Below are positions 1,045-37,690 of a stretch of DNA of 64,000 nt, in pieces; position 1 is the stretch's first letter, and each line of letters opens with the position of its first letter. Below the pieces are notes generated by a model, which saw only the letters and a program-made list of their open reading frames with translations, did not search any database and was not told where the DNA came from. The position numbers were made by a program, and so were the translations under genes. Source of the stretch: Pseudomonadota bacterium (GTDB taxonomy: Bacteria > Pseudomonadota > Alphaproteobacteria > Paracaedibacterales > CAIOTO01); assembly GCA_040389165.1 (NCBI GenBank), contig JAZKAK010000048.1:4022-68021 (forward strand). Reading direction: 5' to 3'.

Positions 1045-1773
1045 ATGATTTCCTTTTTTGGAGTATGTATGTTTGCTATGCATAGATTGAAATTTTTATT
1101 ATGTGCGTGCGTGTTTATATTGGGTGCAAATGCATCATCTTTTTGTGCTGGTGTATATGCTGGCGAACTTGTTTTTTCCGAAGCTGAAATAACTTCGTTG
1201 TTCAGACGGGCTGAAATCGATGCTCACAATGAATCTTTAAGATCATCAGATCGGGATTTGAGTACTAATCTTCATATAAATGGGGATAAATTAAATACCT
1301 CAGCGTTACGTATAACTTATCTTAATAAGCATCAAGCAATTTTATCTGATTGCCATGCTCGGCTTGTGCCAATATTGGCAGAAATTTCTCTGCGTCAATT
1401 TGATGAGAATGTGCACGCACTTGACCCTCACGTTGTGGCAAATCTAGATAATTTATTGAATATTGCGCAATCGCTTGATATGGGAAGAAACGTTCCACTA
1501 ACCGAAGCAAATGGGCTTGTGAGAAGCTTTGGTATTGTGTCAGATGTTCATTTGAATCAATTATGCGCTGGGTTTGATGCACGCCATAGTGAATTATTTT
1601 CACGTGTAGCAACGTTGGCGCATGATCTTGATGTTCAAAGAGAGTCTAATATTGGAATTGATCAGTTAATCACAATAACAGATAATTGGACAACGCAGGG
1701 CGGTTGCTTTCAAGGTAGACGTAATCGTTTGTATGTAGCATTAGCATCGATGATGGCAAATATTGGGGTGTAA
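1045..1773 (+). CDS. hypothetical protein with N-terminal hydrophobic signal-like segment (orphan)
   Basis: 242-aa ORF. N-terminus LKFLLCACVFILGANASSFCAG resembles a signal peptide. No motif recognised. The start codon is uncertain (several in-frame Met). Confidence 0.45.
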   Translation: MISFFGVCMFAMHRLKFLLCACVFILGANASSFCAGVYAGELVFSEAEITSLFRRAEIDAHNESLRSSDRDLSTNLHINGDKLNTSALRITYLNKHQAILSDCHARLVPILAEISLRQFDENVHALDPHVVANLDNLLNIAQSLDMGRNVPLTEANGLVRSFGIVSDVHLNQLCAGFDARHSELFSRVATLAHDLDVQRESNIGIDQLITITDNWTTQGGCFQGRRNRLYVALASMMANIGV

Positions 1774-1897
1774 TACCAATTTCACTAACTTTCGATTAGT
1801 ATAGCCTACTGCGATATCTGCGCTGCTCGCATACTTCAGTATGTTCCGCTGCTCCAATCTTGCAGTCTTTCTACTCGAAGCTTTTTGAAAATGGTAT
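1773..1897. repeat. palindromic element, family C (uninterrupted copy)
   Basis: Terminal inverted repeats ATACCAATTTCA ... TTGAAAATGGTAT. The interior aligns with the outer element at 23596..23892. It starts on the last base of the upstream stop codon (TAATACCAATT). Confidence 0.7.
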
Positions 1898-9248: not shown

Positions 9249-9446
9249 ACGCAGTGCTCACGTTTTGTATATTACGTTTTTTGTCATTGTCATTCCCTCT
9301 TGGCTGTGAATCCAGAGAAAAATTGAATTCAAAACGATAAATTTATATAATTAAAAAGACTGGATCCCCGCCTGCGCGGGGATGACAGCGACTTTTAAAA
9401 CAATTTTAATCCTTGCAAACAAAAAATGAAAAACGTGAGTGCTGCA
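9249..9446. repeat. palindromic MITE-like element, family A
   Basis: TIRs ACGCAGTGCTCACGTTTT (9249-9266) and AAAACGTGAGTGCTGC (9430-9445). Internal hairpin module CTGGATCCCCGCCTGCGCGGGGATGAC. A partial extra TIR copy (CGCAGCACTCAC) lies just to the left. Confidence 0.7.
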
Positions 9447-16072: not shown

Positions 16073-16293
16073 AGTATGATTTCCTGTTCTTACTTTGTCA
16101 TCTCCAGAGAAGGCGAATCCTTCGTGGTGACTCTACTCAGTGTCATTCCCGGACTTGATCCGGGGATCTATAAAGGTTCAACGGCAAACACATAGAGTAT
16201 TTTTATTGCGTGATACATAAAGTTTATATGCCTACTCAATGGTAGATCTTCGGATCAAGTCCGAAGATGACAAAGACAGAGTTTGGCTATGAG
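16073..16293. repeat. degenerate palindromic element (family B-like) with two hairpin modules
   Basis: GTCATTCCCGGACTTGATCCGGGGATCTA and TAGATCTTCGGATCAAGTCCGAAGATGAC modules. The ends resemble decayed B-type termini (agtatg...tttgtcat / gatgacaaag...). Confidence 0.55.
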
Positions 16294-20546: not shown

Positions 20547-21545
20547 ATGACTGTTGCACGTCAATTTTATAAATACCTTGCGCTCCCCCTGCCGCTGATT
20601 TTATCAGCAAGTGAATTATCACTTGTTCATGCAAATGTGACGCCTTCTCAGAAAACAACTCCCAGACAAAAATCGTATCGTATTGCCGAGAAGCTAGATG
20701 CGATTCTAAATGGATATCAGCTGACGTATGATATTGATCGTCGCTCTGTTGATTCAGCCATGCAGCCGGCAGCAGTTCAGCCCGTAATACCTACAGATGT
20801 TATTCGTAAAATCGTGTATTTTATTGATAATAATCTACCTATTGATATCCGCATGGTTGGTTTTCCTTTTAAATCGATCAATCAGAATAGCAAAGTTATT
20901 GATCAAAAGGCAGATATGGCGGAACGATTGAGTTTGCAGTACCTGCAAGGCATGATTGATAAGATCAATGTTGTCTATTCGAAAGGTGCCACACTTACAA
21001 TTATATGTGATGGAATTGCATTTGGTGATGTGCTTGGCGTCGATAATGTGCACATTCAATTGTATGAAGATACGTTGCGAACGCTTTCCAAAGACCTACC
21101 TGGAATTCGCATTCTGGGATCGAAAGAGCTAGGGTGCACAAGCGCTGATTTTCAAAAGGAAATAGCTGAAACAATTTCTGCTGATGATGAATTATTGCTA
21201 AAACGCATGGCTTTAGAATTGAATCAAAGCACCATCACAGATGATGTCCTTATAAAGGCAAAACAAATCGGTGCCCGAAGTCAACAATTCGGTGCGTTTA
21301 TTAAAGATAAATTTAAAGACCAAAACTACATTTCCGCTTCTGTTCATTTCCAACCGAGCACGTCAAGCAAACTAGGGCTCAAGCTTTCCCCTGATTCTTA
21401 TATTACCCCTTGGCATGGCGCCCTTGTAAAAGAGGAAAACGGCCGATGGCGTATTAGTCACCGTGAAGATATTGATCAAACACACTATGTGCAAACAGGC
21501 GCGTATGTGAATCAATGTTGGTGTGTCTTTTTTAAGGCCAGATAG
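20547..21545 (+). CDS. PvcA/Dit1-family (isonitrile synthase-like) protein with signal-like N-terminus
   Basis: VGFPFKSINQNSKVIDQKADMAERLSLQYLQGMIDKINVVYSKGATLTIICDGIAFGDVLGV parallels the PvcA block AFPAKSPN..KVLG..PDMGE..AL.FL..L...I..IY.PGA.LTI.SDG.VF.DL.GV. The C-terminal SVHFQP...KLGLKL...YITPWHG parallels LSIHPQ...KFGI.L....W.TPWHG. Confidence 0.75.
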   Translation: MTVARQFYKYLALPLPLILSASELSLVHANVTPSQKTTPRQKSYRIAEKLDAILNGYQLTYDIDRRSVDSAMQPAAVQPVIPTDVIRKIVYFIDNNLPIDIRMVGFPFKSINQNSKVIDQKADMAERLSLQYLQGMIDKINVVYSKGATLTIICDGIAFGDVLGVDNVHIQLYEDTLRTLSKDLPGIRILGSKELGCTSADFQKEIAETISADDELLLKRMALELNQSTITDDVLIKAKQIGARSQQFGAFIKDKFKDQNYISASVHFQPSTSSKLGLKLSPDSYITPWHGALVKEENGRWRISHREDIDQTHYVQTGAYVNQCWCVFFKAR

Positions 21546-21682
21546 CCGCTTCACTTTCCCAATTCATCCATACTTATTTTGCTCAATTCATAAAGATTGT
21601 GTGAAATCCGTATAACTCTTCAATCTTTTTTGAAGAGAACGCCACTACTTTGTCAATTTCATATATTAAAAGGAATATTTTT

Positions 21683-22738
21683 ATGAAAACTAAATTAAAT
21701 TACACTAGAAAATCATTGGTAATTGCTTTGCTCATGACAACACATTGTGCGACAGCTTCTTCCGTATTTTGTATGGAAGATCTGCCGCAGTCTGAGGCAG
21801 CTCATACATCTGGCATGAACGTTATTGCTACTCCCGCATGTTTGAAAGCGTCCCCTATTGCATTTGATAAAATGTCAGTTACAGATAGGGAAATCATTAC
21901 TAGGCATATAGATAGCTTGCCACGAATGCAAGAAAGTGGCGACGCTATAGCTCGTTTAACTGGATTTCTAAAAAAATGTATCAAAAACAAGCCGCAGGCG
22001 CCACTCTATGATTTAATACAGCAAGCAATTGTTGATGGAGAACCATTGCAGTGCGTTATGCTTGGTTTTCCTGTGAAATCACAGGATATGCGTGAAGTGT
22101 ATGATTCAAAGGCTGGACTGGGCGATCTGTTAAGTTTGCTCACTTTGCATCATATTGCCTATGAAATCCAAAAAGTCCATGCGCCGGGGGCTAAATTTCA
22201 AATTATAAGTGACTATGTTGCATTAAAAAAGATTGTTGCACATGAGTCTGCAGAAATTTATCAAAGAGATATTCAAAGGCTAATCGATTTGTTTCCAGGA
22301 ACTCTTGAATACGATAGAAGTTTTCATGATGCAGAATTCGCCTATGTTGTTTCTGAAGAACAAGCGCAAAACACACGTTATGAAAAAGCATCATATACGC
22401 ATGATGAAAAAAAGATTGCTGAAGCTAAGGCAAAATCAAGTGGATTTAGTGATTACATAACGGGAATGTTGAAAAATATCCCCCATATTCGATTTTCGGT
22501 GCATCACTATAACAATGGAAAATCGAATAAACTTACATTGCCCTTTTTTAGTAAGAAATTAGGGGCACCGTGTCATCATGTCTGCACGGTTAATGCTGAT
22601 TCTAAGTGTGCTCTTGGTAAATATAAAACACAAGAAGGGCATCTTGTTGGAGAAATACGTGCATTCGAGCTGCCAACAATGGATGGGTCAATTATTCCTT
22701 TAACCTACTTTAAAAATTTAGAGGAACAGCATTCATAA
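21683..22738 (+). CDS. divergent PvcA/Dit1-family paralog with signal peptide
   Basis: LGFPVKSQDMREVYDSKAGLGDLLSLLTLHHIAYEIQKVHAPGAKFQIISDY and FSVHHYNNGKSNKLTLPF align to the same blocks as the upstream gene. SDG becomes SDY and TPWH becomes APCH. The ATG at 21683 has an AAGGA RBS. Signal SLVIALLMTTHCATASS. Confidence 0.55.
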   Translation: MKTKLNYTRKSLVIALLMTTHCATASSVFCMEDLPQSEAAHTSGMNVIATPACLKASPIAFDKMSVTDREIITRHIDSLPRMQESGDAIARLTGFLKKCIKNKPQAPLYDLIQQAIVDGEPLQCVMLGFPVKSQDMREVYDSKAGLGDLLSLLTLHHIAYEIQKVHAPGAKFQIISDYVALKKIVAHESAEIYQRDIQRLIDLFPGTLEYDRSFHDAEFAYVVSEEQAQNTRYEKASYTHDEKKIAEAKAKSSGFSDYITGMLKNIPHIRFSVHHYNNGKSNKLTLPFFSKKLGAPCHHVCTVNADSKCALGKYKTQEGHLVGEIRAFELPTMDGSIIPLTYFKNLEEQHS

Positions 22739-23347: not shown

Positions 23348-23596
23348 ATGGAAGAATCAGTTATTGGTGGCGTTTCAGGTGCTGAATTAAGACAATTTAT
23401 TGAACGTATCGAGAATCTTGAGCAAGAAAAAGCAGAGCTTGGTGAGCAAATTCGCGATACGATGAGCGAAGCCAAGGCACAAGGGTTTGATGTTAAAATT
23501 TTGCGTCAACTTATTCGTATGCGTAAGATGAAAAAAGAAGACTTGGCAGAGCAAGAAGAATTGCTCGAGCTATATCGCCGTGCACTTGGCGAATAA
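23348..23596 (+). CDS. gapR: UPF0335/DUF2312 protein (GapR-type nucleoid-associated protein)
   Basis: LRQFIERIENLEQEKAELGEQIRD...AKAQGFDVKILRQLIRMRKM is the hallmark UPF0335 sequence. The start is set at MEESVIGG (ATG 23348). Confidence 0.8.
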   Translation: MEESVIGGVSGAELRQFIERIENLEQEKAELGEQIRDTMSEAKAQGFDVKILRQLIRMRKMKKEDLAEQEELLELYRRALGE

Positions 23597-23892
23597 TACC
23601 AATTCCCGAAATAAATGATTGCTTCAACTTTCTGCACTATCTGTGCTGCTCATGTACTGAAGCATGCTACCCGTCACTTTTATTTTTCTTACTGTCATTC
23701 CCGCGGAGGCGGGGATCCAGGCTGTTTAGCTCTCCCCAAACTCACGGTTTTTAAAGGGGCTTTTCTGGATTCCCGCCTCCGCGGGAATGACAAGGGTGGA
23801 GTGACAAAAAGTGACGGGTAGCATGGTACTGAAGTACATTCCGCTGCTCGAATCTTGAAATCTTAGCACTGATTTATTTGGGGAAATGGTAT
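23596..23892. repeat. palindromic element, family C, interrupted by a family B element
   Basis: Left arm ATACCAATTCCCGAAATAAATGATTGCT... and right arm ...AGCACTGATTTATTTGGGGAAATGGTAT are reverse complements. It begins on the gapR stop codon (TAATACCAATT). A third partial end (CCAATTTCAC) follows at 23897. Confidence 0.75.
23663..23826. mobile_element. MITE-like element, family B, with perfect TIRs and 9-bp target-site duplication
   Basis: 19-bp perfect TIR CATGCTACCCGTCACTTTT / AAAAGTGACGGGTAGCATG. Flanked by GTACTGAAG at 23654-23662 and 23827-23835. Internal inverted pair GTCATTCCCGCGGAGGCGGGGATCCAG / CTGGATTCCCGCCTCCGCGGGAATGAC. Confidence 0.8.
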
Positions 23893-23933
23893 AGTTCCAA
23901 TTTCACACACGGTATAATTTAGGATAAGCACTC

Positions 23934-27754: not shown

Positions 27755-27915
27755 TTAAATGTGTCATCTTTGGGCTTGACCCGAAGATCTCTCCAGTTGA
27801 AAGCGTGCACTGTCTTATTATATGGTTAGTATTTGCCGTCTGATCTTTATAGATCCTCGTGTCAAGCACGAGGATGACAAGGGAGGTGAGATGACAAGGG
27901 TGATAGTTACTTAAA
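27755..27915. repeat. degenerate palindromic element with two hairpin modules
   Basis: GTCATCTTTGGGCTTGACCCGAAGATCTC and TATAGATCCTCGTGTCAAGCACGAGGATGAC modules. The right end GATGACAAGGGTGATAGTTAC resembles a decayed B-type terminus. Confidence 0.5.
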
Positions 27916-30537: not shown

Positions 30538-30682
30538 ACGCAGTGCTCACGTTTTCTCCCCTGTGTTTTGCCCGGACGTGATCCGGGTATCTAAATCACC
30601 GTGTTGATCCCCGGATCACGCCCGGGGGGGACGGTGAATGCACGGAGAGGGATCTAGGTTTCAAAAAACGTGAGCACTGCGT
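30538..30682. repeat. palindromic MITE-like element, family A
   Basis: TIRs ACGCAGTGCTCACGTTTT / AAAACGTGAGCACTGCGT (perfect 18 bp). Internal GCCCGGACGTGATCCGGGTATCTA and GATCCCCGGATCACGCCCGGGG modules. Confidence 0.75.
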
Positions 30683-33303: not shown

Positions 33304-34260
33304 CTAATACGCGAATGATCTAAGCATTTGCATGAATTTTCCGTTATATCCCCATTCTGAGATTTTAAAACACCCAAGGATATCGGGTATTAGGGAAAAG
33401 GTACGTTGATGAGGGTGTCTGTGTACGTTCTTGACGATGCCCTTTAATTCATCTGTCGTTATATAGGTAATTCCATCAGGTTTCTGTTGTGTCGCTACAA
33501 ATAAAAGTGCTTGGTCGTGTGCGTGTATCTTAAATTCTTTACGTTGCATTTGATTGTCAAAGGGTTGATCTGTTAATGCATCCTTGTTTTCACATAAATT
33601 AAGCCATGTTTGCACAAAGGCGCGGCCACGTTCAGTGTTTCGTATAATAAGGAAGGCGCCCCATAACGCGTATTGGTCGTTCAATAGCTTTGGATCTATA
33701 TTATTTAAGGTGAGTGCTTCACTCTTGATGGTTTGGCCGGCTTTATTGAGATTGTTTTTTCGTTTGCTTCCGTCATGTAAAAGAAGAATGTCGGTTTTTG
33801 TTTCATTGAGTTTATGAACAAAGGGTTCAATTGAATTTTTGAATATAACAGGCGAGTCGACATAGAACACAAGGCTGCCTTCGGGAAGTTCTTTGAGCGT
33901 TTTTAAAATGAAATAAGGCTTCCATAGCCAGTAGCCTGCTCCCTTTTTCTGATCGAGAATTTCTTTGTTCTTGGCATAGAAATTAGTATCAATATCTTTA
34001 CGATGATAGAGAAAAAAACGATCAAAACCACGATTGAGTGCGGAAAGAGTTTGTGCATTTTGATTCTGATAAAAGACGGAATCACCATCTGCATACGAAA
34101 TGCAAGCGATGGGGGCAGGGTTCAATGTTTGAATACGATTAATGTCAATGTGAGCAAACGATATATCACTTTTGTTGAGCATATAAAGTTGCTCACATAC
34201 ATTTAGAAAAACGTACACGCAGAGAAAACCAAGCACGTAACGGCGAATTTTAGCGAACAT
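33304..34260 (-). CDS. membrane-anchored hypothetical protein, possible GT-A glycosyltransferase
   Basis: N-terminal anchor YVLGFLCVYVFLNV. GAGYWLWKPYFILKTLKELPEGSLVFYVDSPVIF resembles the W-K-P...(D-x-D-like) arrangement of GT-A transferases. The family is not identified. Confidence 0.45.
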   Translation of the reverse strand: MFAKIRRYVLGFLCVYVFLNVCEQLYMLNKSDISFAHIDINRIQTLNPAPIACISYADGDSVFYQNQNAQTLSALNRGFDRFFLYHRKDIDTNFYAKNKEILDQKKGAGYWLWKPYFILKTLKELPEGSLVFYVDSPVIFKNSIEPFVHKLNETKTDILLLHDGSKRKNNLNKAGQTIKSEALTLNNIDPKLLNDQYALWGAFLIIRNTERGRAFVQTWLNLCENKDALTDQPFDNQMQRKEFKIHAHDQALLFVATQQKPDGITYITTDELKGIVKNVHRHPHQRTFSLIPDILGCFKISEWGYNGKFMQMLRSFAY

Positions 34261-34262
34261 AG

Positions 34263-34493
34263 TATGCTACCCGTCTTTTTGTCATCTTCGGATCAAGTCC
34301 TAAGATCTCTACGCGTGGAAGCGCATGTGCATTGTTGTCTGGTTGTAAAATCATCGAATATTTGCCTTTGAAACTTTATGGATCTTCGGATCGAGTCCGA
34401 AGATGACAAAAGGGGATTCCGAAGATGACAAAAGGGGAGTCCGAAGATGACAAAAGAGGAGTCCGAAGATGAAAAAAAGTGACGGGTAGCATG
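34263..34493. repeat. MITE-like element, family B, with internal 22-bp tandem array
   Basis: Termini TATGCTACCCGTC-TTTTTGTCAT and AAAAAGTGACGGGTAGCATG. Modules GTCATCTTCGGATCAAGTCCTAAGATCTC and GGATCTTCGGATCGAGTCCGAAGATGAC. GCGAACA occurs on both flanks (imperfect). Confidence 0.75.
34395..34478. repeat. tandem repeat, 22-bp unit x ~3.8
   Basis: GTCCGAAGATGACAAAAGGGGA / TTCCGAAGATGACAAAAGGGGA / GTCCGAAGATGACAAAAGAGGA / GTCCGAAGATGAAAAAA, head-to-tail with no spacers. Confidence 0.85.
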
Positions 34494-35347: not shown

Positions 35348-35542
35348 GATTGATGCTCCTTAAAATCATAAAAAACCCCGCGCACGATAAAGTAAGCGGG
35401 GCATGTAGTCTAAACTAGATTCTGCAGTGTTATTTTCGTGAAGGCGGAAATCCGATTGTTTGAAAATGATGGCAATAAATAATTATGCCAAAAATTTTCT
35501 GGATTCCCGTTTGCACAAAAATGACACGAGAAAAACGATTAA

Positions 35543-36348: not shown

Positions 36349-36470
36349 CGCAGTGTGCACGTTTTTTAAAACCCAGATCCCTCTATGTGTATTCACCGGA
36401 CTTGACCCGGTGATCTAGATGCCCGGAGCAAGTCCGGGCAATACACAGGAGAGAAAACATGAGCACTGCG
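36349..36470. mobile_element. MITE-like element, family A, with 8-bp target-site duplication
   Basis: TIRs CGCAGTGTGCACGTTTT / AAAACATGAGCACTGCG. Flanked directly by TGTAGGTA at 36341-36348 and 36471-36478. Internal modules ATTCACCGGACTTGACCCGGTGATCTAGA and GCCCGGAGCAAGTCCGGGC. Confidence 0.8.
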
Positions 36471-36503
36471 TGTAGGTAGAATTTAGTGGATAGCTGACGT
36501 TGA

Positions 36504-37293: not shown

Positions 37294-37558
37294 CATACTG
37301 CCCGTCTCTTTGTCATCCTCGTGCTTGACACGAGGATCTATAAAGCTGCAGAGGCATGAAGTTGAGGATGTTATAACCAGACCACAACGTACATGCGCTT
37401 CCACGTGTAGAGATCTTCGGATCGAGTCCGAAGATGACAAAAGGTGGAGAGAAGATGCCAAACAAAAACGTGGAGAGAAGATGGCAAACAAAAAGGTGGA
37501 GAGAAGATGCCAAACAAAAGCGTGGAGAGAAGATGCCAAACAAAAACGTTGGGTAGTG
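37294..37558. repeat. MITE-like element, family B (diverged termini), with internal 26-bp tandem array
   Basis: Left CATACTGCCCGTCTCTTTGTCAT, right AAAAACGTTGGGTAGTG. Modules GTCATCCTCGTGCTTGACACGAGGATCTATA and AGAGATCTTCGGATCGAGTCCGAAGATGAC. Confidence 0.65.
37444..37547. repeat. tandem repeat, 26-bp unit x 4
   Basis: GTGGAGAGAAGATGCCAAACAAAAAC repeated four times with 1-2 substitutions per unit, head-to-tail. Confidence 0.9.
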
Positions 37559-37690
37559 AAGGCGCAATTATTTGCTTTAATTCAATATTAATTATAAATA
37601 AATGATTATTAAATATTATTATTTAAAGTTAACCATATATTAATTATTATATACTATTCTGTACGTATAAAATTAAATATAGGTGTGGTT

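Follow-up and report, generated by a model that had tools for sequence, protein, structure and literature searches.

How can a short, non-coding piece of DNA bear the marks of transposition when the DNA around it encodes no transposase? The question is raised by a 64-kb stretch of bacterial DNA (contig JAZKAK010000048.1, hereafter the window, with a GC content of 42%), in which a gapR-like gene and a downstream gene for a prepilin-type pseudopilin-like protein are separated by two repeats, one placed inside the other. The outer repeat is a palindrome of a family that we call family C, while the inner one is a non-coding element of 163 bp bounded by terminal inverted repeats (TIRs). The 163-bp element entered the tip of the older palindromic repeat of 125 bp, and its insertion left a clean duplication of 9 bp of target sequence. 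It is, very probably, a miniature inverted-repeat transposable element (MITE) that carries the ends of an insertion sequence (IS) of the IS4 family and that was mobilised in trans, by a transposase of the same IS clade, into the apex of a pre-existing family C copy.

The inner element and its target duplication

The inner element spans positions 23663-23825, and its two 19-bp TIRs agree at 19/19 positions (0 mismatches, with 0 TIR matches expected by chance). The initial annotation, made from the letters of the window, had already described these TIRs as perfect and had placed the left end correctly, while its right end (23826) and its length (164 bp) were one too high. In the same way, it had recognised a perfect 9-bp repeat beside the two ends with the right coordinates for the left copy, but the right copy lies at 23826-23834 and not at 23827-23835. 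The repeat, GTACTGAAG, is present exactly twice in the window, both times beside a TIR, and this pair is the sole 9-mer direct repeat at a spacing of 172 in the whole window. Given the base composition of the window, the probability of a 9/9 match between the flanks is P=4.8e-6. The open reading frames (ORFs) within the 163 bp are spurious read-throughs only, and no transposase ORF is among them.

Family C and the MITE together form a composite of 297 bp that folds at -85 kcal/mol (z=-13.5). A scan for promoters and terminators in the spacer between gapR and the pilin gene found nothing exceeding shuffle expectation, and in Rfam the tRNAs alone reached the gathering threshold, with one meaningless sub-threshold microRNA match over the hairpins. 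A literature search with the TIR sequence string returned unrelated primers only.

The interrupted palindrome

The TAA stop codon of gapR (23594-23596) is followed by TA and then directly by family C. When the element is removed together with one copy of the repeat, so that 23596-23662 is joined to 23835-23892, exactly 125 bp are obtained, and these align without gaps to an uninterrupted family C copy (1773-1897, also 125 bp) with 84/125 identical positions (67%). If both copies of the repeat are retained, a 9-nt gap opens in the alignment exactly at the apex. Each 125-mer folds into a long, imperfect hairpin that has an apex hairpin and is closed by ATACCA/TGGTAT (z=-5.3 for the host and z=-2.7 for the paralogue), the apex reading ATGTACT-GA-AGTACAT in the host and CATACT-TC-AGTATG in the paralogue. 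In particular, the centre of the comparator, CATACTTCAGTATG (1830-1843), forms the same apex hairpin, except that its two central nucleotides are flipped and its stem has compensated changes. The MITE occupies the tip of the palindrome, where the 9-mer that was duplicated lies 1.5 nt off the symmetry axis. The initial annotation had proposed just this nesting, in which excision of the element and one repeat restores a family C palindrome collinear with 1773-1897, and the alignment bears it out. It had also presented 1773-1897 as the unoccupied target itself; this copy does serve as an empty-site comparator, but it is a 67%-identical paralogue of related sequence rather than an identical target.

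Might the 9-bp repeat have arisen by chance or from the host palindrome, with the inner element being no more than another form of the family C centre? The repeat does overlap the apex hairpin. Palindrome symmetry, however, yields inverted and not direct repeats, which excludes an origin of GTACTGAAG from the symmetry of the host, and the 125-bp register is restored only when one copy is removed; the possibility of host symmetry, raised along with the original proposal, falls on these two points. In addition to the low probability of a 9/9 match, the inner element is also found outside family C, with different flanks (34263-34493 in the window, L006 and P0146-8, described below), and we give coincidence almost no credence. 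Collectively, the TIRs, the 9-bp duplication and the restoration of 125 bp on excision support the transposition-type mobility of a non-coding element that had been suggested for this locus.

A second question is whether the insertion took place here at all, or whether it arose in another family C copy and the occupied allele reached this site through exchange between paralogues, either gene conversion or homologous recombination. In that case the duplication would be genuine but would not mark a transposition into the present site. Repeats of the family C type are known recombination substrates, and the window alone has two copies of this multi-copy family. These two available copies, however, are 67% identical with perfect stretches of at most 19 nt and would be a poor substrate for a heterology of 172 bp, and we know of no further family C copy that is occupied, which leaves exchange between paralogues improbable when set beside direct insertion of the MITE.

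The surroundings of family C have features of their own. Both copies are laid out as TAA(stop)-TA-(CCAATT...AATGG)-TA (1771-1785 and 1890-1897; 23594-23604 and 23885-23906), and their TA flanks possibly represent a target duplication of TA. Directly after the host copy, the sequence reads TAGTT-CCAATTTCAC. A relative without the element (L013, positions 25-45) reads TAA-TA-CCAATTTCAC, a 10/10 match to the left terminus of family C (1776-1785), and CCAATTTCAC at this empty site could be the sign of an end-targeted insertion or the remnant of an older copy. Furthermore, two short-read contigs of the same organism (L011 and L012, from Logan SRR26324622) break exactly 30 nt into each family C end. 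The composite repeat is an assembly breakpoint, and the copy numbers of these elements would therefore be underestimated in short-read metagenome-assembled genomes (MAGs).

The parent insertion sequence

As initially noted, the window lacks a transposase: Pfam found no transposase domain among its ORFs of at least 150 aa, all of which are housekeeping or unannotated, and tblastn with the cognate IS transposase described here gave no match in the 64 kb at E<=1. The initial annotation had advised a search for an IS with ends that match the TIR, and in public contig collections such an IS, of the IS4 family, was found. An exact scan with the 19-mer covered genome and metagenome contig collections and returned IS copies, one relative of the MITE (L006) and apparently coincidental or coding matches (L002/3/10, L005, L007/9, L008), while a viral contig collection scanned with the degenerate TIR gave no match. 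In four metagenome contigs, the flanks of which are all different, the 19-mer is the first stretch of an IS; in the L004 copy it is the end situated upstream of the transposase start. In the three complete copies (L020, L018 and L004) the second end matches the 19-mer at 18/19 positions.

The parent IS is ~1.17 kb long and has a single ORF of 358 aa, the product of which carries the Pfam domain DDE_Tnp_1 (PF01609), scores 167 bits with the NCBIfam IS4 equivalog NF033591 (cutoff 152) and contains YRKRWSIEELFKKLK, which conforms to the IS4 signature Y(2)R(3)E(6)K. This transposase is ~35% identical to the ISAba1- and ISBf13-type transposases present on plasmids. A protein search returned hundreds of relatives, most of them on contigs of ~1.2 kb, as expected of collapsed repeats. 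Three relatives on longer contigs (L025, L026/L027 and L028), with 47-53% aa identity, keep the terminus CAyrCTACCCGTCAsTTT, and all three are flanked by perfect 9-bp duplications. Both the end of the MITE and the length of its duplication are matched by one IS clade. The duplications collected (n=6) have no obvious shared motif, and no target preference is claimed. Direct repeats of the IS4-family subgroups measure ~8-13 bp (De Palmenaer et al. 2008, Table 1 of PMC2266710), a range into which the duplications of L025, L026/27 and L028 fall.

Two of these longer contigs carry additional features. At L025:2209-4393, IS4-type ends with a 9-bp duplication enclose, besides the transposase gene, a decayed end in the interior and ~1 kb of additional DNA that has a 157-aa ORF; the unit has the appearance of a small derivative of this IS clade that carries cargo. 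The L028 contig also has a Ros/MucR-type gene, a type that we take to be typically alphaproteobacterial.

The hairpin interior

Beyond ~21 nt at each end, the MITE and the IS have no sequence in common. The interior is not a deleted transposase gene; it is a doublet of inverted hairpins (96% complementary to each other) that resembles the Neisseria Transformation Sequence (NTS) and the Ssn-related motif (SRM). The NTS is the single-stranded DNA target of the GIY-YIG nuclease SsnA, and the published search for it tolerated at most 1 mismatch (PMC11893778); with 2 and 3 mismatches, the hairpins of the MITE exceed this published limit, and they do not match the strict degenerate SRM pattern. Four other hairpins of the window do match the published SRM pattern, against 0.1 expected. 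A motif scan and a listing of gap ORFs found no ssn-like GIY-YIG gene (GIY-YIG_unchar_3) in the 64 kb. The hairpin arms match records of N. gonorrhoeae, Azospirillum and Photobacterium, and a Francisella small RNA probe holds the same hairpin motif.

Intergenic hairpin repeats of the form TGTCAT-stem-loop-stem-GATC are found at 9283-9388, 16141-16272, 27762-27880, 30538-30637, 35495-35526 and 36405-36471 of the window, and their stems differ by compensatory changes. The first three of these stretches are hairpin doublets without TIRs, as is L015:1068-1176. The MITE is thus a chimera, in which IS4 ends surround a hairpin doublet that also occurs alone.

Such doublets bring to mind a REPIN-like origin, in which a doublet of repetitive extragenic palindromes (REPs), with GTAG as the REP signature, is moved as single-stranded DNA by a RAYT (an IS200/IS605-type Y1 transposase). 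The ends of the MITE contain GGGTAG, and the inverted hairpin doublet is found without TIRs in L015-17 and at the three places in the window. To our knowledge, however, transposition by RAYT or IS200-605 makes no target duplication, whereas a 9/9 duplication is present here, and no Y1 transposase was found in the 64-kb window. Moreover, GTAG is part of the MITE end because the stop-codon region of the parent IS4 transposase (GGG-TAG) overlaps the right TIR, where AAA AGT GAC GGG TAG reads K-S-D-G-stop. Although a 'GTAG REP' was described by Wachter et al. in QMITE2, a repeat of Coxiella burnetii (PMC5896051), we regard movement by a RAYT as highly improbable for this element.

Hairpins may also be considered as targets, and the element would then have been placed by site-specific insertion through an IS110-family recombinase that recognises hairpin repeats. 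We know of no IS110-family elements with long TIRs or 9-bp duplications, and the TIR and duplication anatomy disfavours such an insertion; furthermore, the hairpins here are cargo and not target, and the window contains no recombinase of this type. Recombinases of the IS110 type are known to target NTS-like hairpins, as do IS1111 in Coxiella (PMC5896051) and the Nf-phage recombinase at dRS3 of Neisseria (PMC11893778), but insertion of this kind is hardly conceivable at the present site, and the IS4-type ends of the MITE offer the better account.

Other copies of the MITE family

A degenerate TIR search detected two further, older TIR-bearing elements in the window, which brings the total to three, and the hairpin cores differ between these two and the 163-bp copy. 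The flanks of the second element (34263-34493), CGAACATAG and CGAACACGG, match at 7/9 positions (P=0.0016), as a decayed 9-bp duplication. Its left duplication copy (34254-34262) holds the ATG start of an adjacent glycosyltransferase-like gene (33304-34260, minus strand); thus, the second MITE inserted practically at the start of translation and took the place of the sequence originally upstream of the gene. The tandem arrays of the two older elements lie between the right hairpin and the right TIR (34393-34480, with a 22-bp unit repeated 3-4 times, and 37439-37568, with a 26-bp unit repeated 4 times), and both units are built on GAAGATG(A/C)CAAA; the young copy has no array.

Outside the window, the L006 contig of an Alphaproteobacteria MAG carries a 164-bp relative with 79% identity over 134 nt, a decayed right TIR and flanks that match at 6/9 positions (P=0.011). 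As L006 holds the closest relative of the MITE and the window has a gapR-like gene, the host of the window may be an alphaproteobacterium. The flanking duplications in the family (9/9, 7/9 and 6/9) all differ in sequence. Three further copies (P0146-P0148), on NCBI contigs of 50.5, 63.8 and 53.3 kb, are known from the peptide that results from read-through of the element, with which they are identical at 52/52, 52/52 and 51/52 residues. The part that they share opens at HATRH, which corresponds to CAT GCT ACC CGT CAC, and their N-terminal flanks differ. By these peptides, the subfamily comprises at least four copies that are nearly identical and occupy different sites, which points to a recent multiplication. 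In a plasmid collection there was no full-length MITE, and the matches were to hairpin arms only.

The gapR-pilin locus and its element-free relatives

Homologues of the pseudopilin-like protein with 57-80% identity gave access to the orthologous loci. In L014 (protein 67% identical) 18 bp separate the gapR stop from the pilin start, and in L013 (80% identical) the spacer is ~32 bp; neither family C nor the MITE is present in either. A comparison of relatives had been proposed along with the original observation, and these orthologous spacers provide it. Because they are free of both elements, family C and the MITE are lineage-specific additions to an originally short spacer. As to the order of events, family C came first and the MITE afterwards.

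In L015-L017 (protein 67% identical), the spacer of 150 bp contains another insert, a TIR-less inverted hairpin pair, TGTCATTCCCGCGAAGGCGGGAATC ... CTGGATCCCCGCCTTCGCGAGGATGACA. The hairpins of this doublet (L015:1068-1176, also in L016 and L017) are NTS-like and begin 26 nt past the stop codon. The sister lineage gained its TIR-less doublet independently, and hairpin elements have landed repeatedly in the spacer between gapR and the pilin gene.

Upstream of gapR, two tandem DIT1_PvcA (isonitrile-synthase-like) genes occupy 20547-22738; the pair is kept in some relatives (P0005 contig) and is absent from others (P0003 and L014 contigs). A EukProt gene model (P0015) consists of a GapR domain fused to a protein homologous to the pilin-like one (63% identity), which suggests that a eukaryote assembly includes, as symbiont or contaminant, a relative of this bacterium whose spacer is short and free of the elements.

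Table. Features of the composite repeat, its relatives in the window and the cognate insertion sequences
Feature	Sequence	Position	Strand	Remarks
gapR-like gene, 82 aa		23348-23596	+	ATG at 23348; Pfam PF10073 GapR_DNA-bd, E=1.1e-30
Family C host, left arm	ATACCAATT...	23596-23653	.	gapless alignment to 1773-1897 after excision; long hairpin, z=-5.3
Target-site duplication, left copy	GTACTGAAG	23654-23662	+	abuts left TIR; part of family C apex hairpin
Left TIR	CATGCTACCCGTCACTTTT	23663-23681	+	identical to left end of IS4-family IS in L020, L018, L022
Internal hairpin 1	TGTCATTCCCGCGGAGGCGGGGATCCAG	23693-23720	+	3 mismatches to NTS consensus CGTCATTCCCGCGMAVGCGGGAATCYRG
Internal hairpin 2, inverted copy	TGTCATTCCCGCGGAGGCGGGAATCCAG (minus strand)	23765-23792	-	2 mismatches to NTS consensus CGTCATTCCCGCGMAVGCGGGAATCYRG
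Right TIR	AAAAGTGACGGGTAGCATG (as plus-strand sequence)	23807-23825	-	exact reverse complement of CATGCTACCCGTCACTTTT
Target-site duplication, right copy	GTACTGAAG	23826-23834	+	abuts right TIR
Family C host, right arm	...AATGGTAT	23835-23892	.	alignment after excision; folding
Downstream prepilin-type pseudopilin-like protein, 249 aa		23934-24683	+	used as probe for orthologous loci
Uninterrupted family C paralogue, 125 bp	begins at stop codon TAA-TA-CCAATTTCAC, ends ...AATGG-TA	1773-1897	.	
Second TIR-bearing element, 231 bp	TIRs TATGCTACCCGTCTTTTT and CATGCTACCCGTCACTTTT	34263-34493	.	own hairpin core + 22-bp tandem array
Third, decayed TIR-bearing element	left TIR CATACTGCCCGTCTCTTT, degenerate right end ...AAACGTTGGGTAGTG	~37294-37558	.	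26-bp tandem array
Complete IS copy	19-mer end + second end CATACTACCCGTCACTTTT	L020:30-1197		1168-1172 bp class
Complete IS copy	19-mer end + second end CATACTACCCGTCACTTTT	L018:17-1188		1168-1172 bp class
Complete IS copy	19-mer end + second end CATACTACCCGTCACTTTT	L004:107-1274		1168-1172 bp class
Clade member	GGTAAGGCG	L026/L027		9-bp duplication
Clade member	GTTTTTGTT	L028		9-bp duplication
Clade member	AATTTTTTT	L025		9-bp duplication around 2.2-kb unit

A proposed route for the insertion and its meaning

The anatomy of the element, the nested order, the match between MITE and IS ends, the 9-bp habit of the IS clade and the multiple near-identical copies are direct observations, from which a route can be proposed. 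Family C inserted first, immediately after the gapR stop codon. A transposase of the CAyrCTACCCGTCAsTTT clade, whose gene is in another part of the genome or has meanwhile been lost, would then have bound both 19-bp ends; the element would have been excised and, by analogy with IS10 and IS50, inserted via 9-bp staggered cuts, the repair of which would have produced the duplication of GTACTGAAG. Since no transposase is encoded in the window, we infer the mobilisation in trans, as we do the cut-and-paste chemistry and any effect on the expression of gapR or of the pilin gene.

Several observations weigh against this account. The host copy and its comparator (1773-1897) share only 67% identity, only one MITE copy with a perfect target duplication was inspected at the DNA level, and the third copy of the window (~37294-37558) has no recognisable duplication. 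On the side of the IS, the copies in L020 and L004 lack a duplication (flanks 4/9 and 3/9), although we treat this as uninformative, given the shortness of the contigs and, for L020, the presence of other ISs around it. In addition, the IS copies with the exact 19-mer are on short metagenome contigs that do not belong to this lineage, one of them being binned as Bacteroidetes, and the 64-kb window holds no transposase of the IS clade, so that any resident autonomous partner is putative.

The element is an ordinary, recently active MITE without a transposase, and its kind of mobility is not new; the current understanding of transposition is unchanged, as non-autonomous derivatives of the IS4 family are already known. 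The value of the locus is that of a clean case of a recently active bacterial MITE, with paralogous and orthologous empty sites and with a parent IS clade that was found from the ends alone. Mobility in the absence of a transposase becomes a testable hypothesis of trans-mobilisation, and the nesting supplies a relative chronology, with family C followed by the MITE. Moreover, IS4 ends around NTS-like hairpins hint at how such hairpin repeats spread.

Comparison with known systems

The features by which MITEs are recognised are all found in this family: small size, no transposase ORF, TIRs, a target duplication of fixed length and variable sequence, multiple copies, and TIRs shared with an autonomous IS that has the same duplication length. 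Among known MITEs, the Correia (NEMIS) elements of Neisseria are likewise small, intergenic and TIR-bearing, with a strong hairpin potential. Correia elements make a TA duplication and have 26-bp TIRs unrelated to the TIR described here. Identity with them was rejected, as the present element duplicates 9 bp and not TA.

Within the IS4 family, MIC231/IS231 of Bacillus cereus provides a precedent in which IS4-family ends surround non-transposase DNA that is mobilised in trans by the cognate transposase. MIC231 is larger than the element described here and carries genes, IS231 duplications are 10-12 bp, and the hosts are Firmicutes. The parent IS resembles ISAba1/ISBf13-like members of the family in its single ORF for a DDE/YREK transposase, its 9-bp duplication and its 5'-CA terminus, and it differs from them in its identity of only ~35%, while the element in the window is a non-autonomous derivative and not an IS. 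The size of the parent IS (1.165-1.175 kb) and its CA end fit IS4Sa-type ends (PMC2266710), and a 9-bp duplication also fits the IS10 type. The internal hairpins are similar, at 2-3 mismatches, to the Neisseria NTS/dRS3 and Ssn-related motifs, although the NTS is not described as bracketed by IS ends (PMC11893778).

The closest parallel in architecture is QMITE2, the elements of which are 150-190 bp long and have TIRs that measure 17-31 bp; their direct repeats, unique and variable, are 7-11 bp in length and most often 9 bp. They occur as full-size copies with TIRs and direct repeats and as small REP-like copies without them (PMC5896051). The present element falls within these ranges in size (163 bp), TIR length (19 bp) and length of the direct repeat (9 bp). 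It also resembles QMITE2 in its intergenic or 3'-of-gene sites, in its very stable hairpin fold and in the coexistence of full-size and small, TIR-less versions. The two differ in their hosts, a gammaproteobacterium for QMITE2 and an uncultured Pseudomonadota MAG with alphaproteobacterial markers here, and also in that a parent IS clade is named here and no IS1111-type or IS110-family element is present in the window. As the comparison is with the published description, the element is QMITE2-like by architecture and is not called a member. The origin of QMITE2 was termed indeterminate by its authors, and no parent transposase is known for it (PMC5896051; PMC10969869); the present locus offers a candidate origin for elements of this type. 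We tentatively suggest, as a possibility on which we would not yet rely, that the IS4-type ends of the CAyrCTACCCGTCA clade are a vehicle that spreads doublets of NTS-like or Ssn-related hairpins, and that the full-size and small forms of QMITE2 reflect the same phenomenon. If this were true, the parent transposase of QMITE2-type elements would be identified, together with one route by which hairpins that serve as Ssn or IS110 targets multiply across distant Pseudomonadota.

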